Shown here in pieces: positions 1,034-62,304 of a stretch of 64,000 nucleotides of DNA. A model generated the notes under the pieces. The model was given only the letters and a program-made list of their open reading frames with translations, did no database searches and had not been told where the DNA came from. A program made the translations under genes and the position numbers. The stretch's first letter is position 1; every line of letters starts with the position of its first letter. The stretch lies in IMG/VR virus record IMGVR_UViG_3300009082_000959; one strand, given 5' to 3'. Origin of the DNA: a virus (lineage: Duplodnaviria; Caudoviricetes).

Positions 1034-1200
1034 ATGAATAAATTAGGCGGCAAAGAATTTGTATTAATTAATAGAAGGAAAGTGGATCGAAATATAAATG
1101 GAGCCTTGGATATTTTGTTCAGGGCAGCTGGAAATACATCCTATTTTAATGGTGATGTTCAAAATTGCACTGTTAATAAAAGTTAGCAGAAAGGTATCGG
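1034..1200 (+). mobile_element. Orphan remnant of IS607 3' end (tnpB C-terminus + omegaRNA/right end)
   Basis: Ungapped similarity to about 60975-61135 and identical terminal 18 nt TTAGCAGAAAGGTATCGG. ORF 1034-1186 (MNKLGGKEFVLINRRKVDRNINGALDIL...) aligns with TnpB KLGGKEYVLVGGKKVDRDINGALGIL. Confidence 0.85.
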
Positions 1201-1208
1201 CACGCAAC

Positions 1209-1625
1209 ATGAACCTCGGAAAAGTTATAAAAATATATGAAATCATTAAAAATAGATTACCTAAAACTTATCCTCACCCAAAACTCGCCTTCTTTGAGGA
1301 TGAGGATTGCATGTTAAGCAACACTAATTTAAAAAAAATAGAAAACGAAAATGTATATGCGGTATTTTCCCCAACCACAGAAACGATATGCTTGCCACTT
1401 AAAATGACCTTTGAGTATTATGGGAAAAATGGAAAGTATATAAACACAGTTAATTTAAATAAATTCACTGATGTAGAAATTGCTCATACTTTATTGCATG
1501 AGTGTTGTCATATGTATGCTGGCGAAAAGTATGGATATTTTTCAGAAAAATATCATGATGAAAAATATTGTGATACATTTGCGAGTAGGTGGGTAAAGGT
1601 TTTGGTTAAGGAAAAATTACTATGA
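1209..1625 (+). CDS. HExxH zinc metallopeptidase-like protein
   Basis: IAHTLLHECCHMY motif. Start at ATG 1209 preferred because the ORF-track extension lies inside the IS remnant. Confidence 0.55.
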   Translation: MNLGKVIKIYEIIKNRLPKTYPHPKLAFFEDEDCMLSNTNLKKIENENVYAVFSPTTETICLPLKMTFEYYGKNGKYINTVNLNKFTDVEIAHTLLHECCHMYAGEKYGYFSEKYHDEKYCDTFASRWVKVLVKEKLL

Positions 1626-1934: not shown

Positions 1935-1968
1935 GGTTGCATATGCCTGAAAGCATATGCAGCCTTTT
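1935..1968 (+). terminator. Rho-independent terminator
   Basis: GGTTGCATATGC-CTGAAA-GCATATGCAGCC followed by TTTT. Confidence 0.75.
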
Positions 1969-1995
1969 AGGTATCGAATATATTTATGTTTTCCA

Positions 1996-2024
1996 TTGAC
2001 AATTGTTGACAAACGGTATATTAT
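1996..2024 (+). promoter_or_regulatory. Sigma70-type promoter for tnpB, probably giving a leaderless mRNA
   Basis: TTGACA-N17-TATTAT; ATG at 2032 is 7 nt after the -10 box with no SD between. Confidence 0.6.
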
Positions 2025-2031
2025 TATAATA

Positions 2032-3198
2032 ATGTTCAAATCCACGAAAACTACTTTACGGTTTGCTAATACTGGTAAACGAAATCACCTTGACAGTTTC
2101 CTCGACGAGTATCGTCGTGTGCTTGCGGTTTTCGTGGATTTGCTTTGGTCGCAAGAAAAGGTCCCAGTGTTGTTACCAGCTTCCGTCACGAAACCAATTC
2201 AAACTACTTCGTGGCTTTCCGCGAGAATACTACAAGCCGCAGGAAAACAGGCCAGCGGAATAGTTCGCGGAACTCGTAAAAAGCAACAACAACGAAAGTG
2301 GGTTTACGACAAACTCCAAACCGAAGGCAAATTTAAACAAGCACGAAAACTAAAACGAATTATAGACAAAGTCATTATAACCAAACCAAATATAAATCAA
2401 GTAGAACCAGAATTAGATTCGCGTTTTGTAAAACAGGACTGGACCAACTCAACTACTTTTGATGGGTTCGTGACTTTGTCTTCGTTGGGTAATCATTTAA
2501 AAATTGTGCTACCAGTAAAGCGTAATAAACATTTCAATAAATTGCTCACCGCTGGAACACTTAAAACCGGTGTCAGGATTTCACGTAATGCTTTGACTTT
2601 TTGTTTTGAATTACCTGACGTCAAACCGCGTTCCACAGGAACTACACTGGGAATAGACTTGGGAGTAAAAAATACTATCTCTACTTCCCAAGGATTTTCC
2701 AGTAAGCCCGACAACCACGGACATACACTGGATTCCATCAATACACGATTGACACGGAAAACAAAAGGTTCTAAAAACTTTAAACAGACACAAACACTAC
2801 GAACTAATTACATAAACTGGTCTGTGAATCAACTTAATTTAGACCAAGTTAAGACCGTAAAACTCGAAAACTTAAAACATTTTCGTAAAGGCGTAAAAAC
2901 TTCACGCAAACTAACCCACTTCACCTACACAGAGATTCAAAGTAAAGTAGTAAATTGTTGTAATTTACTTGGTGTCCAAGTAGAATACGTAAATCCTACT
3001 TATACTTCTCAAAGGTGTAGTTGTTGTGGTTGGGTTCGTAGTAGCAATAGGAAAGGCAAACAGTTTAAGTGCAAAGCCTGCGGCTTCGCTGTGGATGCGG
3101 ATTTAAATGCTGCCTTAAATATTGCCACTAACCTTCGGCCTATTGGCCGTGAGGAACGATTGCTCCACAAAAACCGCAAGGGTTTTTACTGGAAGTAA
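2032..3198 (+). CDS. tnpB: TnpB/Cas12f-like RNA-guided nuclease, no tnpA
   Basis: RuvC-I GIDLG, RuvC-II VKLENL, zinc finger CSCC...CKAC, RuvC-III DADLNAA; catalytic D/E/D intact. Start at 2032 (MFKSTK) preferred. Confidence 0.85.
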   Translation: MFKSTKTTLRFANTGKRNHLDSFLDEYRRVLAVFVDLLWSQEKVPVLLPASVTKPIQTTSWLSARILQAAGKQASGIVRGTRKKQQQRKWVYDKLQTEGKFKQARKLKRIIDKVIITKPNINQVEPELDSRFVKQDWTNSTTFDGFVTLSSLGNHLKIVLPVKRNKHFNKLLTAGTLKTGVRISRNALTFCFELPDVKPRSTGTTLGIDLGVKNTISTSQGFSSKPDNHGHTLDSINTRLTRKTKGSKNFKQTQTLRTNYINWSVNQLNLDQVKTVKLENLKHFRKGVKTSRKLTHFTYTEIQSKVVNCCNLLGVQVEYVNPTYTSQRCSCCGWVRSSNRKGKQFKCKACGFAVDADLNAALNIATNLRPIGREERLLHKNRKGFYWK

Positions 3199-49413: not shown

Positions 49414-50697
49414 ATGACTAATTGTGTTGAGGTTGAAAAATTAAGTGAAATAAAGTATAAGATTAATATTTCTGTTCCATCCCAAGAGGTGGATAAAAAA
49501 TTCGATGATTTTTTTAAGATAGCTGGAAAGAGTGCGCAAGTTCCTGGTTTTAGAAAAGGGAAAGCCCCATTGTCTTTTTTGAAGCAAACTTTCTATGAAA
49601 AGGCAAAACCAACTGTTGCGCAAGCCTTGGTTGGTGAATATTTTACCAAAGCAATACAAGAGAATTCCATTAATCCCGTTGGGAAGCCGGAAATGGATAG
49701 TAAATTTAACAACGGCAAATACCCAGGATTATTTGGATTTGATAATTCTTTTAGTGCAAGTCTTATTGTGGAAGTTTTACCAAAAATTGATCCAGCTGGT
49801 TATTTAGGAATGGAATTAGATTTGCCAAACATTGATTTAAATAAGATGGTAGAAGCAAAGGTATTGGAAAGCAGAGAGCAGTTTGCAGAGAGAAAGCAAA
49901 TTTCTGATAGACCTGCCCAAACTGGAGACTCCGTAGTAATAGATTTTACCGGAATGATTGATGGAAAGCCGTTTGGTGGAGGGTCTGCGTCTGGCCATGT
50001 GATTAATTCGCTTGGTTCTGGAAGTTTGGTGTTTGGATTGGAGGCAGGAATAGTGGGAATGTCTTTAAATGAAACCAAAAATATCCCAGTGAAATTTCCT
50101 GATGATTATAGAATGAAGAATTTGGCTGGTCAGAATACAACATTTGATGTTACTCTGAAAAGCATAGTGGAAAAAAAGTTGTCAGAAGTAAATGTTGATT
50201 TAGCACTAATGTTGGGATTTACCTCTATTGAAGAAATGATGGAAAAATTTAAGTCTGATGCGCAGGAAAACAAAAGCGCTATGGAGCGGCAAGCACTTGA
50301 CAAGACAATTGTAAATATGCTCATAGCAAAGAATGTTTTTGATGTTCCTTCGGCTCTTATAGATGATGAATTTAGGCGCATAATGACTATATCAAAAAAT
50401 AAAGTTGAAGACTTGCAAAGCGATGTTATTGCAAGTATCAAGAAAATAGCAGAGACAAATGTTAAGCGTGCGGTGTTGTTTGATGCAATATACGAAAAAG
50501 AAAAGTCACTTGAGGTGACTCCAGAAGAATTAAACAAACTATTAGAACAACACTCAAAGGCAAACAATATGTCGAAGGATGATTTGGTTAGTAATTTATA
50601 CAACTCAAATCAAATGGATAATTTTGTGGGTATTTTAAGAACATCAAAAGTTGTTGATTTTATTATCTCACAAGCAAAAAGAAAGGAAAATGTTTAA
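49414..50697 (+). CDS. tig: Trigger factor
   Basis: Ribosome-binding signature VPGFRKGKAP; FKBP-like GDSVVIDFTG...FGG...GLEAGIVGM...VKFPDDY; C-terminal domain present. Confidence 0.92.
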   Translation: MTNCVEVEKLSEIKYKINISVPSQEVDKKFDDFFKIAGKSAQVPGFRKGKAPLSFLKQTFYEKAKPTVAQALVGEYFTKAIQENSINPVGKPEMDSKFNNGKYPGLFGFDNSFSASLIVEVLPKIDPAGYLGMELDLPNIDLNKMVEAKVLESREQFAERKQISDRPAQTGDSVVIDFTGMIDGKPFGGGSASGHVINSLGSGSLVFGLEAGIVGMSLNETKNIPVKFPDDYRMKNLAGQNTTFDVTLKSIVEKKLSEVNVDLALMLGFTSIEEMMEKFKSDAQENKSAMERQALDKTIVNMLIAKNVFDVPSALIDDEFRRIMTISKNKVEDLQSDVIASIKKIAETNVKRAVLFDAIYEKEKSLEVTPEELNKLLEQHSKANNMSKDDLVSNLYNSNQMDNFVGILRTSKVVDFIISQAKRKENV

Positions 50698-50942
50698 TGG
50701 AAACAGCAAGTAAGCAATCGGTAACTGGATTTAAGGTAATCAATTTTCAAAGCAAAACAAGCAAGGATACAGAGAAGGTTCGTTTGGTTTTGGAGGCAGA
50801 AGTAGATACAATGGGAGCCGGCACATATGATGTTGGCGATATACTAAAGGCTTTGCTCCATCATCAAACCGGACAAATAGATGTTGGCCTATCCGTGTTT
50901 GTAAATTCTGCACTTCCATCATCGGAAGAAGACACCCCATAA
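50697..50942 (+). CDS. Hypothetical protein
   Basis: ORF with SD AAGGA. Confidence 0.6.
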   Translation: METASKQSVTGFKVINFQSKTSKDTEKVRLVLEAEVDTMGAGTYDVGDILKALLHHQTGQIDVGLSVFVNSALPSSEEDTP

Positions 50943-58538: not shown

Positions 58539-59384
58539 ATGCACAAAAAGTTTCTTGCACTGATTATGCTAATTTCTGCTTTTTCTTGGTCTTGTCAGGA
58601 TAAAAATAAATTGACAGTTGGAGAACAGATTTCAGAAACCATTGTGTATGTGAATCAATCATCAGGAGTCATTGTATATTCCGATGAAGAACGATCATTG
58701 GTTTTAACAGCATATCATGTAATAGCAGATAATTGCGATTCAAGCGGTAGTTGCAATACAGACGAAATAAAAGTATCCATAGTGTATCCAATTTTTTTGG
58801 ACAAAGAAACAAAAATAAGAGCAAGAGAGATAATGGAGAAAAATGGAACCAGTGAAGATATTATTAATTTAATATTGGATAATGAGTTTATTCAAATACC
58901 AGAGTTTTTTAGTGTTGTTCAATCCGAAGTAGACCCATCCCACGACTTGGCTATATTGGAAATAAAAACTTCGTTAAATTTTCGTTTCTCTAATCTTTCC
59001 AAAAAAGAATGCAAGGTTGGAGACGATGTTTATCTTGCTGGTAATCCAAATAGATTATTCAGAACAATATTAAAGGGAACCGTTGGGTCTATTGATAGGT
59101 TTATAGATAATACCGAGTCAATACAAATCAGTGGCGGAACAATATTCGGTAGCAGTGGCGGTGGAGTTTTTAATCTTGATGGGGAATTAATTGGAATAAT
59201 TCAATCCGTAAGGGCATTGGTTACGCCTTATTGTTATGGCGAGTGGAATGAAGATGGAGATTTTGTTAAAAGGACGTGCGTTGAGTTGCCAGTTGAGTTT
59301 TTGGGTTTTGCTGCAAAAGAAAAAGTAATTATCGACTTTCTATCTGAAAGTCGATTTTGTTTGTATTTTAAAATTTGTAAATAA
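58539..59384 (+). CDS. Trypsin-like serine protease with signal/lipoprotein-like N-terminus
   Basis: LTAYHV (His), HDLAIL (Asp), GSSGGG (Ser); MHKKFLALIMLISAFSWSC. Confidence 0.85.
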   Translation: MHKKFLALIMLISAFSWSCQDKNKLTVGEQISETIVYVNQSSGVIVYSDEERSLVLTAYHVIADNCDSSGSCNTDEIKVSIVYPIFLDKETKIRAREIMEKNGTSEDIINLILDNEFIQIPEFFSVVQSEVDPSHDLAILEIKTSLNFRFSNLSKKECKVGDDVYLAGNPNRLFRTILKGTVGSIDRFIDNTESIQISGGTIFGSSGGGVFNLDGELIGIIQSVRALVTPYCYGEWNEDGDFVKRTCVELPVEFLGFAAKEKVIIDFLSESRFCLYFKICK

Positions 59385-59461
59385 AAAAGAAAGGTTAGCT
59401 AACTGCACATAATCTGCTAATATCTTCCAACATAGTATGCCACTACATAGGAGGTATTTTC

Positions 59462-60055
59462 ATGTTCGTGCCGCTTAGAAAAGCGGTTGAATTAACGGGT
59501 CTACACCCAAACACTTTAAGGAAATATGCAGACCAAAACAAAATCAAAGCAGTCAGAACTCCCTGCGGGAACCGGTTGTTCGACACCGATTCACTTCCGG
59601 GCCAACAGGCTCAGCGATCAGCCACAGTCTGCTATTGTAGAGTTAGTTCAACCAAACAAAAATCAGGTCTCGCTAGACAAGTTGTTGAACTTAGAACCCA
59701 ATTCCCCCAAGCAGACATCATCCAAGATGTGGGATCCGAGCTCAACTTCAAAAGAAAAGGGCTTAGGTCCTTATTGGACCGATTGCTTCAAGGAGATCGT
59801 ATCACACTTATCGTGGCTCGCAGAGACCGGCTCTGCCGGTTTGGATTCGAGTTGCTTGAGTATTTGGTCACCAAAAACGGTGGAGAAATCATGGTTCTCG
59901 ACCAACCTGAAACAAGTCCGCAATCAGAATTGGTTCAAGACTTGTTGTCAATCATACTTGAGTTCTCTCGCAGAGTCCCAGGACTCCACAGATACTACGA
60001 TGATATCAAAAAAGATACGACTGTTACCAACTCAACAACAGAAACAGCAACTTAA
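59462..60055 (+). CDS. tnpA: IS607 serine recombinase/transposase (MerR-HTH + resolvase)
   Basis: GLHPNTLRKY, YCRVSS, DVGSELNFKRKGL, RDRLCRFGF, ELVQDLL. Confidence 0.95.
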   Translation: MFVPLRKAVELTGLHPNTLRKYADQNKIKAVRTPCGNRLFDTDSLPGQQAQRSATVCYCRVSSTKQKSGLARQVVELRTQFPQADIIQDVGSELNFKRKGLRSLLDRLLQGDRITLIVARRDRLCRFGFELLEYLVTKNGGEIMVLDQPETSPQSELVQDLLSIILEFSRRVPGLHRYYDDIKKDTTVTNSTTETAT

Positions 60056-61121
60056 TTCGTGGATAAACGGTTTTCGTTTTGTTTATAATCAGTCTTTGGA
60101 GTATGCACAGAAGCAAACAACTACTCCATCGTGGTTTAAAACTAAAAAGCAGTTGTTAGATCAGTTACCCTCTTGGACTAAACAAATTCCCTATCAAATT
60201 AAATCAATTGCTATAAAGGAAGCATTTGATAACCTAAGACAACGGAAAAAACAAGCAAAATTTAAACACACTAAATTTAAGATGCACTTTAAGTCTAAGA
60301 AGGAACCACAACAATCGTGTTATTTGCCTAAGTCTGCGGTTTTGACAAAGGGAATTTATCCAAGGTTGCTGGGGAAACTTAAATACACAGAATCACTGCC
60401 ATCCAATATTGGTGACTCTCGTTTAGTTTACGTTTACGGGAAATTTTACTTAACTATACCAACAACAAAGCAACGGTCTTTAACCGAGAACCAAGGCAGA
60501 ATCGTTGCTCTCGATCCAGGTATAAGAAAGTTTATTACTTTCGTAAGTCATGACAGTGCGGGTTGCTTGGCAACCCATGACATAGGTAGGATTTATAGAT
60601 TATGTTTTTATTTAGACCAATTAGTTTCCAAGACAAGCAAGGCCAAGTCTAAACAAAAACATAATTTACGAAAAGCAGCAAACCGTATTCGTGAAAAAAT
60701 TAAAAACTTAATAGATGAACTACACAACAAAGTTGCCTATTTTCTTGTTAATAATTTTGACCTAATTTTACTACCAACTTTTGAAACACAACAAATGGTT
60801 TCCAAAGCACATCGTAAAATAGGATCAAAATCAGCCAGGGCCATGATGACTTTCAGTCACTATAAATTTAAGCAGAAACTAAAACACAAAGCCTTTGAAT
60901 ACGGGAAAGTAGTAGTTGATGTTTGTGAAGCCTATACTAGTAAAACCAATAATTTTACTGGCGTGGTGGATAAAAAATTAGGCGGAAAAGAATACGTATT
61001 AGTTGGTGGGAAAAAAGTGGATCGAGATATAAATGGAGCCTTGGGTATTTTACTTATGGCATTGGGAGATACACCCTATTTGGACAATTCAGTCCACAAT
61101 TGCACTGCTAATCATTATTAG
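60000..61121 (+). CDS. tnpB: IS607 TnpB with Fanzor-like rearranged RuvC site
   Basis: KIRLLPT start; VALDPG; ILLPTF at the canonical RuvC-II position; VCEAYTSK; DRDINGA. Frame is open from 59526, overlapping tnpA. Confidence 0.9.
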   Translation: MISKKIRLLPTQQQKQQLNSWINGFRFVYNQSLEYAQKQTTTPSWFKTKKQLLDQLPSWTKQIPYQIKSIAIKEAFDNLRQRKKQAKFKHTKFKMHFKSKKEPQQSCYLPKSAVLTKGIYPRLLGKLKYTESLPSNIGDSRLVYVYGKFYLTIPTTKQRSLTENQGRIVALDPGIRKFITFVSHDSAGCLATHDIGRIYRLCFYLDQLVSKTSKAKSKQKHNLRKAANRIREKIKNLIDELHNKVAYFLVNNFDLILLPTFETQQMVSKAHRKIGSKSARAMMTFSHYKFKQKLKHKAFEYGKVVVDVCEAYTSKTNNFTGVVDKKLGGKEYVLVGGKKVDRDINGALGILLMALGDTPYLDNSVHNCTANHY

Positions 61122-61143
61122 CAGAAAGGTATCGGAATAATTA

Positions 61144-62304
61144 ATGAGTAAAAGTATGGCAGATATTTGGAAGACTATAGAAAAGCAACATGGTCCTGAG
61201 GGATTGTATGTTGGCAATACGGACATGACAACATATTCTGGGGCCATTCCTACCGGCAGTTATGGTTTGGACGACGCCCTGGGTATTTGGGGTCTTCCAA
61301 AAGGACACATGGTTCAGTTTGCGGGGTTTGAGCAATCCGGGAAAACACTGATGGCTCTTTCTGCTATCGCACAGTGGCAAAAACAAGGTTCATCTAACTG
61401 GGCCATGTTTATCGACGCAGAATTTACCTACACAAAAGAGTGGGCAGAGATGCTGGGAGTTGATACTTCCAGACTTTATGTTTATAGAGAAAATAAGGGA
61501 CCAGAAATTTTTGCTCGTTTGACTGGTATTCCCGGTAAACCAAATTTGCAAGGCGTGATTAAAAAGGTTAAGCCCGGCATTTTGGATCTTGAAATAGAAA
61601 ACGGCGGAACTGGATTAGGTATTATTGTTCTTGACAGCGTTCCAGCCGTATTAGTGCCCATGGAAGAAGCCAGTGCGCCTGGAAAACAAAATATGGCTCT
61701 AATGGCTCGTTTTCTTCCGCCTGAGCTACGAAAGCTTACACCACTATTGACAAAAACCGGTGTGTTGTTTATTGCAATAAACCAATTACGTTTTACGCCT
61801 GGGGTTATGTATGGAGATCCTACTATGTCTCCTGGTGGTCAAGCATTAAAACATGCTTGTGCACAGATTATTAATTTTGGACGTATGAAAGGAAAAGACT
61901 CGAAGATTGAAGAGGGAGAGGAACAAACAGGTCATCACATCATGGCCAAAATCGATAAGAACAAAAAAGCTCCGCCGTTTCGTAAAGCAACTTTTGGTAT
62001 TAAATACACAGAAGGTGTGGTAGAGCAAAACATAGAAATTCGTGACCTCGGAGCAAAATATGGTGTAATTCTTCGTCCCAACAATAGAATTTGGGAGCTG
62101 GATGGCATAAAATATAGTGGTAAAGATGATATTGCCGAAGCCCTGAAAGAGGAAACCTTACAGCAGTCTGTGTTGGAACGAGTTAAAGAAGCTAAGAAAA
62201 ACTGTATTCATCTAGTTAATGTTGATGACGAAACCGAAACCGAAGAAGAGATGGACCAAGAACAAGAATTGTTGGATGCGGAATCTACACAAGAATTGGA
62301 ATGA
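61144..62304 (+). CDS. recA: RecA recombinase
   Basis: IPTGSYGLD, GFEQSGKT, FIDAE, VLDSV, INQLR, PGGQALKH, NKKAPP. Confidence 0.95.
   Translation: MSKSMADIWKTIEKQHGPEGLYVGNTDMTTYSGAIPTGSYGLDDALGIWGLPKGHMVQFAGFEQSGKTLMALSAIAQWQKQGSSNWAMFIDAEFTYTKEWAEMLGVDTSRLYVYRENKGPEIFARLTGIPGKPNLQGVIKKVKPGILDLEIENGGTGLGIIVLDSVPAVLVPMEEASAPGKQNMALMARFLPPELRKLTPLLTKTGVLFIAINQLRFTPGVMYGDPTMSPGGQALKHACAQIINFGRMKGKDSKIEEGEEQTGHHIMAKIDKNKKAPPFRKATFGIKYTEGVVEQNIEIRDLGAKYGVILRPNNRIWELDGIKYSGKDDIAEALKEETLQQSVLERVKEAKKNCIHLVNVDDETETEEEMDQEQELLDAESTQELE

Follow-up and report, generated by a model that had tools for sequence, protein, structure and literature searches.

An intact insertion sequence of the IS607 family splits the ribosome-binding site of recA in a huge, uncultured bacteriophage (IMG/VR record IMGVR_UViG_3300009082_000959), where it sits at the GG of the AAAGG that formed this site. 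A remnant of an older copy, of which only the right end is left, stops 8 nt before the start codon of another gene. We propose that such placements are probably the outcome of a short motif, RRGG (R being a purine), combined with the survival of insertions between genes, with no dedicated recognition of ribosome-binding sites. The window analysed here comprises 64,000 nt and is part of a 105-kb virus record with a CheckV completeness of 26%; the positions of all features are collected in Table 1.

The two insertion points in the phage

The left flank of the element closes with AAAGAAAGG at 59386-59394, and on the other side the element is followed by AATAATTA (61136-61143) and the ATG of recA at 61144. 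The element itself starts at 59395 with TTAGCTAACTG and finishes with TTAGCAGAAAGGTATCGG (61118-61135). A GG core is present at both junctions, in the left flank (...AAAGG) and in the right end (...TATCGG), with no target duplication beyond this GG, and the two extremities, TTAGCTAAC at the start and GTATCGG at the finish, do not form inverted repeats. By its serine-recombinase TnpA, the accompanying tnpB and the GG junctions, the element belongs to the IS607 family, to which it adds a further member, and its placement is what the IS607 rules predict. The first-pass annotation, made from the sequence alone, had described an IS607 element recombined at GG, and the coordinates, the junctions and the rejoined recA site that it gave are all present in the sequence.

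Removal of the element rejoins AAAGAAAGG, a spacer of 8 nt and the ATG, an arrangement that fits the Shine-Dalgarno spacing of the other genes in the window. RRGG is enriched 3-11 nt before the starts of the window genes, which implies that the phage uses ribosome-binding sites, and the very same 9-mer, AAAGAAAGG, also serves as the ribosome-binding site of two other genes, at distances of 8 and 10 nt from their ATGs. These copies, at 1742-1761 and 50678-50699, are unoccupied and represent potential further targets. On a viral contig (L086) whose RecA is 58% identical to that of the phage and shares its opening residues MSKS, a protease homologue (29% identity) ends 1 nt before recA with no element between them, and an AGGAG lies 9 nt before the recA ATG. 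This arrangement supports the rejoined protease-recA layout without proving the junction.

The second insertion is represented by the solo right end located before a gene for a SprT-like protein. Its final 18 nt are identical to those of the full copy and the similarity breaks exactly after TATCGG, where CACGCAAC begins; the earlier statement that this right end stops 8 nt before ATG 1209 was thus accurate. Both right-end junctions, that of the full copy and that of the solo end, break exactly after GG. The full copy and the solo right end, which differ in their right flanks, may reflect mobility of the element. The SprT-like protein had no match in the phage collection, and ATG 1209 is its putative start. 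Over the 105 kb, profile models of the element ends, built from relatives, detected a single left end and no right ends other than these two, and neither the nhmmer left-end model nor shuffled local alignment revealed a left end upstream of the solo right end; with both searches negative, the idea that the solo end belongs to a mini-element was rejected. The annotation had also pointed to an AAAGG left of the remnant. This motif does exist, at 1019-1023, and could not be tied to the original junction: 13-16 nt separate it from the beginning of the remnant, with no detectable left end, and it was rejected as the left junction of the solo end.

Two further observations concern this region. In the interval 1019-1186, an AAAGGAG is followed after 8 nt by ATG 1034 and by a 50-codon open reading frame (ORF) that corresponds to a C-terminal piece of TnpB (RuvC-III region); this piece, inside the solo right end, is still an open frame despite 23% divergence. 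A second, unrelated TnpB gene (1957-3198), which follows the SprT-like gene after ~330 nt, encodes a 413-aa ORF in which Pfam finds only the TNB domain, and no tnpA lies beside it.

Target motif and distribution of insertions among relatives

Searches for relatives found roughly 900 loci. The right-end tip has the consensus TTAGCAAAAAAGTATCGG, conserved in the loci of 72 relatives, which lets the junctions be read exactly. In the left flanks of 33-34 unique insertions with both ends placed, the GG at positions -1 and -2 follows from the way in which the junctions were set. Position -4 is A in 23 and G in 10, with neither C nor T; position -3 is A in 20, G in 10, C in 1 and T in 2, that is, a purine in 30/33; at position -5 there is a leaning towards G. 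In TATCGG, the end of the element itself, T stands at -4 and C at -3, pyrimidines where the flanks carry purines. The resulting types AAGG, GAGG and AGGG overlap the core of ribosome-binding sites. The AAGG-type motif suggested in the annotation was supported as regards this overlap.

In published IS607 systems, the target of TnpA is also the target-adjacent motif (TAM) of TnpB and the right end breaks this TAM at -3, so that self-cutting is avoided; the C. botulinum element has TGGG as TAM and TCGG as its own end, with a scaffold ending in UCGG, and ISXfa1 has GGG and CGG, respectively (bioRxiv 10.1101/2023.11.20.567912; 10.1101/2023.08.09.552727; PMC6188088). Because the contrast between flanks and own end fits this published pairing, we infer that RRGG may serve both as target and as TAM in the clade studied here. 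Purine-rich TAMs are known from other TnpB-related systems: AGGAG or GAGGG for ISFba1-type elements (Ren et al. 2024, PMC11061315) and NGGG for a mimivirus Fanzor2 (PMC10530073).

Some details of the flanks deserve mention in their own right. In the right flanks of ~34 relatives the first base is G in only 1/34 and the next bases are A/T-rich, a bias that might reflect a further restriction, either on the target or on how the guide begins. In a sub-lineage of three loci (L055, L100 and L142) the left end starts with TTTAGCTAGTT and is preceded by GAGGGAG, AAGGAG or GAGGAAA; there the flank motif may be AGGAG-like, not ending in GG.

The distance from insertion sites to start codons across relatives, a check proposed together with the annotation, was determined from the right-end junctions. 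An ORF start (at least 80 aa) was found 6-10 nt downstream in 8/66 unique junctions (12%), and none of the 66 had a start at 1-5 or 11-15 nt; motif-matched controls gave 3.3% at 6-10 nt (p=0.002). With reconstructed empty sites and a stricter rule for gene starts, the figures were 3/30 against 13/2440 controls (p=8e-4). The control based on right ends only is inflated by internal in-frame starts; that based on empty sites is cleaner and smaller. Three copies lying ~3.5 kb apart on one cyanobacterial chromosome (L034, L035 and L038) entered the statistics once; their left and right flanks are identical, implying that the element lies inside a tandemly repeated unit. The peak at the spacing of ribosome-binding sites is real among the relatives and concerns a minority of their insertions. 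In the set with both ends placed, 40% of the insertions were intragenic, compared with 79% of the control sites. The motif, together with survival between genes, probably explains the peak 6-10 nt before starts.

In the phage window, a start follows within 3-14 nt at 24/66 of the RRGG sites between genes, counted in both orientations; for plus-strand intergenic sites the corresponding values are 15/25 for AAGG and 8/12 for AAAGG. Since 36-60% of the intergenic RRGG/AAGG sites of the phage are ribosome-binding sites, two hits in two insertions are expected: the chance of both falling in such sites is P ~0.13-0.36, to which the identical spacing adds a factor of ~0.17, and the two phage copies, same spacing included, are within expectation.

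On this basis we propose the following sequence of events. RRGG would be both the preferred target of TnpA and the TAM of TnpB, in line with the literature on other IS607 elements. Once the element is excised, guide-bound TnpB would cut the site formed by AAAGG and the start of recA, sparing the element's own end. As ribosome-binding sites have RRGG as their core and intragenic insertions would be lost, landing in ribosome-binding sites would be a by-product. Among the surviving insertions, a sizeable minority would stand 6-10 nt before starts (~12% in bacterial relatives), and in an AT-rich, gene-dense phage about half of the tolerated RRGG sites would be ribosome-binding sites. The orientation would be forced, the element pointing as the downstream gene does; being co-oriented with recA, it would therefore let read-through transcription reach this gene. 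No terminator-like site was found inside the element on the plus strand. A 10-bp hairpin with a T-rich tail, terminator-like, occupies the last codons of the protease gene (59331-59355), ~40 nt before the insertion point.

Several points weigh against this explanation. With intergenic RRGG sites only as controls, the comparison becomes 2/18 against 11/509 (p=0.07), the observed rate still being 3-4 times higher, and there may be some extra preference for the context of a ribosome-binding site. A crude rule, that of the longest ORF, set the gene starts of the relatives, which makes observed and control rates approximate. The proposed TAM is read from the flanks only. Pairing at the split site would depend on the 3' end of the host 16S rRNA. 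Finally, neither a true empty allele nor another filled site in close relatives came out of scans of viral contigs and metagenomes: an exact scan of the viral contigs with the right-end 18-mer returned nothing, protein scans of the same contigs with TnpB and TnpA returned no close relative, and the relatives in the metagenome scan were all at most 57% identical, few of them with the same right-end motif.

The right-end linker and alternative explanations

The first-pass annotation had put forward that the element targets Shine-Dalgarno sequences and that its right end supplies a replacement. In its full form this would mean that evolution has made the element home in on ribosome-binding sites, which would be its safe harbours, with AGAAAGG near its right end restoring the site that it destroys. 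In support of this idea, both phage copies keep the linker AAAGG despite an overall identity of 77%, both lie 8 nt before an ATG, and the peak of the relatives at 6-10 nt is sharp. AGAAAGG would pair with a 16S rRNA 3' end reading ...CCUUUCU, and its spacing of 14 nt, although long, is not impossible for an extended site. However, the family consensus at the linker is AAAAAAG, with GG in only ~6/72 right ends and in none of the 8 relatives whose insertion lies at 6-10 nt from a start. An alignment of 25 right ends showed an 8-bp hairpin conserved just before the tip, the first pair of which is C-G in the phage copies in place of U-A, both partners having changed. The C is thus compensated by the G of GCAG, and this pair change accounts for the first G of GAAAGG; the residual change of the linker, in the single-stranded part, is only AAAAG to AAAGG. 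Furthermore, the 14 nt from the linker to the recA ATG exceed the 3-11 nt seen for all other window genes. Among the relatives, ~88% of the insertions lie away from ribosome-binding sites, and no significant excess remains when intergenic RRGG sites are the reference (p ~0.07). What survives of Shine-Dalgarno targeting is thus the peak itself and not its dedicated nature, and we consider a dedicated mechanism with self-rescue improbable. The case for a right end built to supply a replacement ribosome-binding site is weak, and this part of the annotation was not sustained. The AAAGG of the linker may nonetheless help the translation of recA. The tnpB stop codon lies 22 nt upstream of the recA ATG, and coupling of recA translation to this stop codon is a possibility.

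An explanation centred on TnpB is that TnpA inserts at almost any GG, and that copies persist where a good TAM adjoins a conserved right flank. TnpB would cut the empty alleles of co-infecting relatives and recombination would copy the element into them. Published work on IS607 suggests that TnpB may shape insertion profiles after promiscuous insertion by TnpA, and TnpB-driven retention has been shown. In the phage the residues of the RuvC motifs are kept, the predicted guide covers the start of recA, and the 58% identical relative has kept this MSKS start together with a ribosome-binding site close by. The predicted guide sequence (61136-61155) occurs once in the 105-kb contig, where no second genomic target was found for either of the two predicted guides. 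Against homing as the main cause, no empty allele was found, and the same RRGG flank accompanies bacterial chromosomal copies, for which homing between genomes is less obvious. We regard it as distinctly unlikely that homing by itself produced the pattern; it would add to the combination of motif and survival and does not exclude it.

That the two phage insertions are unrelated events with no preference beyond GG is hardly credible: they are only two, and plus-strand intergenic GG lies 3-14 nt before a start in 53/210 cases, but the purine requirement at -3 and -4 over ~33 independent insertions and the peak at 6-10 nt in relatives speak against pure coincidence.

The element, its relatives and its significance

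Table 1. Positions of the two insertions, their parts and their neighbours in the window
Feature	Position	Strand	Remarks
Solo right end, remnant of an older copy	1037..1200	+	164 bp; 77% identical to the last 161-164 nt of the full copy
Spacer and SprT-like ORF	1201..1625	+	8-nt spacer CACGCAAC (1201-1208); ATG at 1209
Trypsin-like protease gene	58539..59384	+	Pfam PF13365; upstream neighbour of the insertion
Left flank AAAAGAAAGG	59385..59394	+	5' half of the recA ribosome-binding site, split by the insertion; predicted TAM/target AAAGG, crossover GG 59393-59394
Intact IS607-family insertion sequence	59395..61135	+	1,741 bp; between the protease gene and recA
Element left end	59395..59461	+	TTAGC/GCTAA repeats; AGGAGG ribosome-binding site of tnpA; left-end nhmmer model E=1.5e-6
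tnpA, serine recombinase	59462..60055	+	MerR-type helix-turn-helix (HTH) and resolvase catalytic domain; CRVSSTKQ motif
tnpB, canonical form	59997..61121	+	374 aa; RNA-guided nuclease; Pfam PF12323 (HTH_OrfB_IS605), PF01385 (OrfB_IS605), PF07282 (Cas12f1-like TNB)
Right end with the presumed scaffold of the guide RNA (omega RNA)	60972..61135	+	Conserved across the clade; compensatory pairs
Right-end hairpin	61105..61124	+	8 bp
Right-end linker	61125..61129	+	AAAGG
Right-end terminus	61130..61135	+	TATCGG
Right flank, predicted TnpB guide/target	61136..61155	+	Spacer AATAATTA and recA start; prediction based on published omega-RNA architecture
recA	61144..62304	+	386 aa; Pfam PF00154, E=2.8e-49; downstream neighbour of the insertion

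All genes of the window are on the plus strand, with a GC content of ~32%, and the best likeness of the RecA protein is to that of Bacillus phage G (36%). In TnpA, PF00376 covers residues 8-40 and PF00239 residues 56-171, and the nearest solved chains are the IS607-family transposases ISC1904, ISC1926 and IS1535. The genes overlap, as tnpB starts inside tnpA. The nearest solved structure to TnpB is the mimivirus Fanzor2 L79 (9b0l, E=7e-25), and its named sequence homologues are mostly cyanobacterial, with ~50-55% identity; an identical protein is also encoded on a 289-kb contig, and further homologues are 61-70% identical. The alignments retain the RuvC motif residues as invariants, the glutamate of EAYTSKT is invariant too, and the C-terminal region shows no CxxC motif of a zinc finger.

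The tnpB frame is open from 59526, upstream of the canonical start, across almost all of tnpA (59526-59996, ~158 codons), giving a 531-aa form. The frame is also open across tnpA in 92/95 relatives; stops in it are absent in 60/63 relatives, with 3.3 expected from synonymous shuffles of tnpA; and the four-fold synonymous sites of tnpA have an identity of 0.64 in the overlap against 0.40-0.43 elsewhere. These measures, all taken from sequence comparison, point to selection on the extended frame and suggest a dual-coded N-terminal extension of TnpB. AlphaFold returned no fold for the first 153 residues of the 531-aa form, which are predicted to be disordered.

The element resembles the H. pylori element IS607, ISXfa1 and the intron-bearing CboIStron of C. 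botulinum in its HTH serine-recombinase TnpA and its TnpB, in the GG crossover at both junctions, in the lack of terminal inverted repeats and of target duplication, and in a right end or scaffold ending in ...TCGG; the use of the left flank as TAM, proposed here, and a right end that breaks this TAM at -3 would be further likenesses. It differs from ISXfa1 and CboIStron in the flank, RRGG (AAAGG) instead of GGG or TGGG, and from all three in being carried by a huge phage and in having a TnpB of a probably Fanzor-related clade. A cyanobacterial clade of IS607 TnpB proteins has been proposed in a preprint as the source of Fanzors, and the phage TnpB may fit this clade: it shares with it, and with Fanzor2 L79, the closest structure, the mostly cyanobacterial relatives, the lack of a visible CxxC and a nuclease frame open across tnpA. 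Unlike these, the copy described here is borne by a bacteriophage, and its predicted TAM has A or G at -3, not a strict G.

ISFba1-type elements, which use a guide RNA derived from RAGATH-18 (Ren et al. 2024, PMC11061315), likewise have a purine-rich TAM, one that equals the consensus of ribosome-binding sites; they form a different lineage, and the motif that we propose for the phage element is shorter and looser. An Rfam search of the window returned no family at the gathering score, RAGATH-18 included. The ISFba1 structure gave no sequence match at E<=1e-3, and the PDB search retrieved Fanzor2 L79 and a Cas12f. The assignment of the element to the ISFba1 type was rejected, with no RAGATH-18 match and a TnpB not close to that of ISFba1.

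It is a tentative idea, on the unlikely side, that several IS607/TnpB lineages have converged on motifs resembling ribosome-binding sites (AGGAG in the ISFba1 type, RRGG here) as an adaptive safe harbour, and that in phages the right-end linker may drift to AAAGG. If this were true, such sites would be intergenic, abundant and co-directional with transcription, so that TnpB and the guide RNA would be made by read-through; the conserved gene starts beside them would be good targets for homing between related phages, and a linker AAAGG would keep the downstream gene translated.

In summary, a tendency to land at ribosome-binding sites is shown here for a probably Fanzor-related lineage; the literature searched gives purine-rich TAMs and draws no link between them and ribosome-binding sites. 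Our results offer a reason why IS607/TnpB elements are found between ribosome-binding site and start codon in compact phage genomes, and are relevant for annotation, as genes behind such elements have their ribosome-binding site displaced by ~1.7 kb. They also call for caution, since patterns of insertion sites are not evidence of targeting where motif coincidence and purifying selection suffice. Furthermore, they provide a testable prediction, the TAM RRGG, for the TnpB clade nearest to the eukaryotic Fanzors, which would be usable in genome-editing work.

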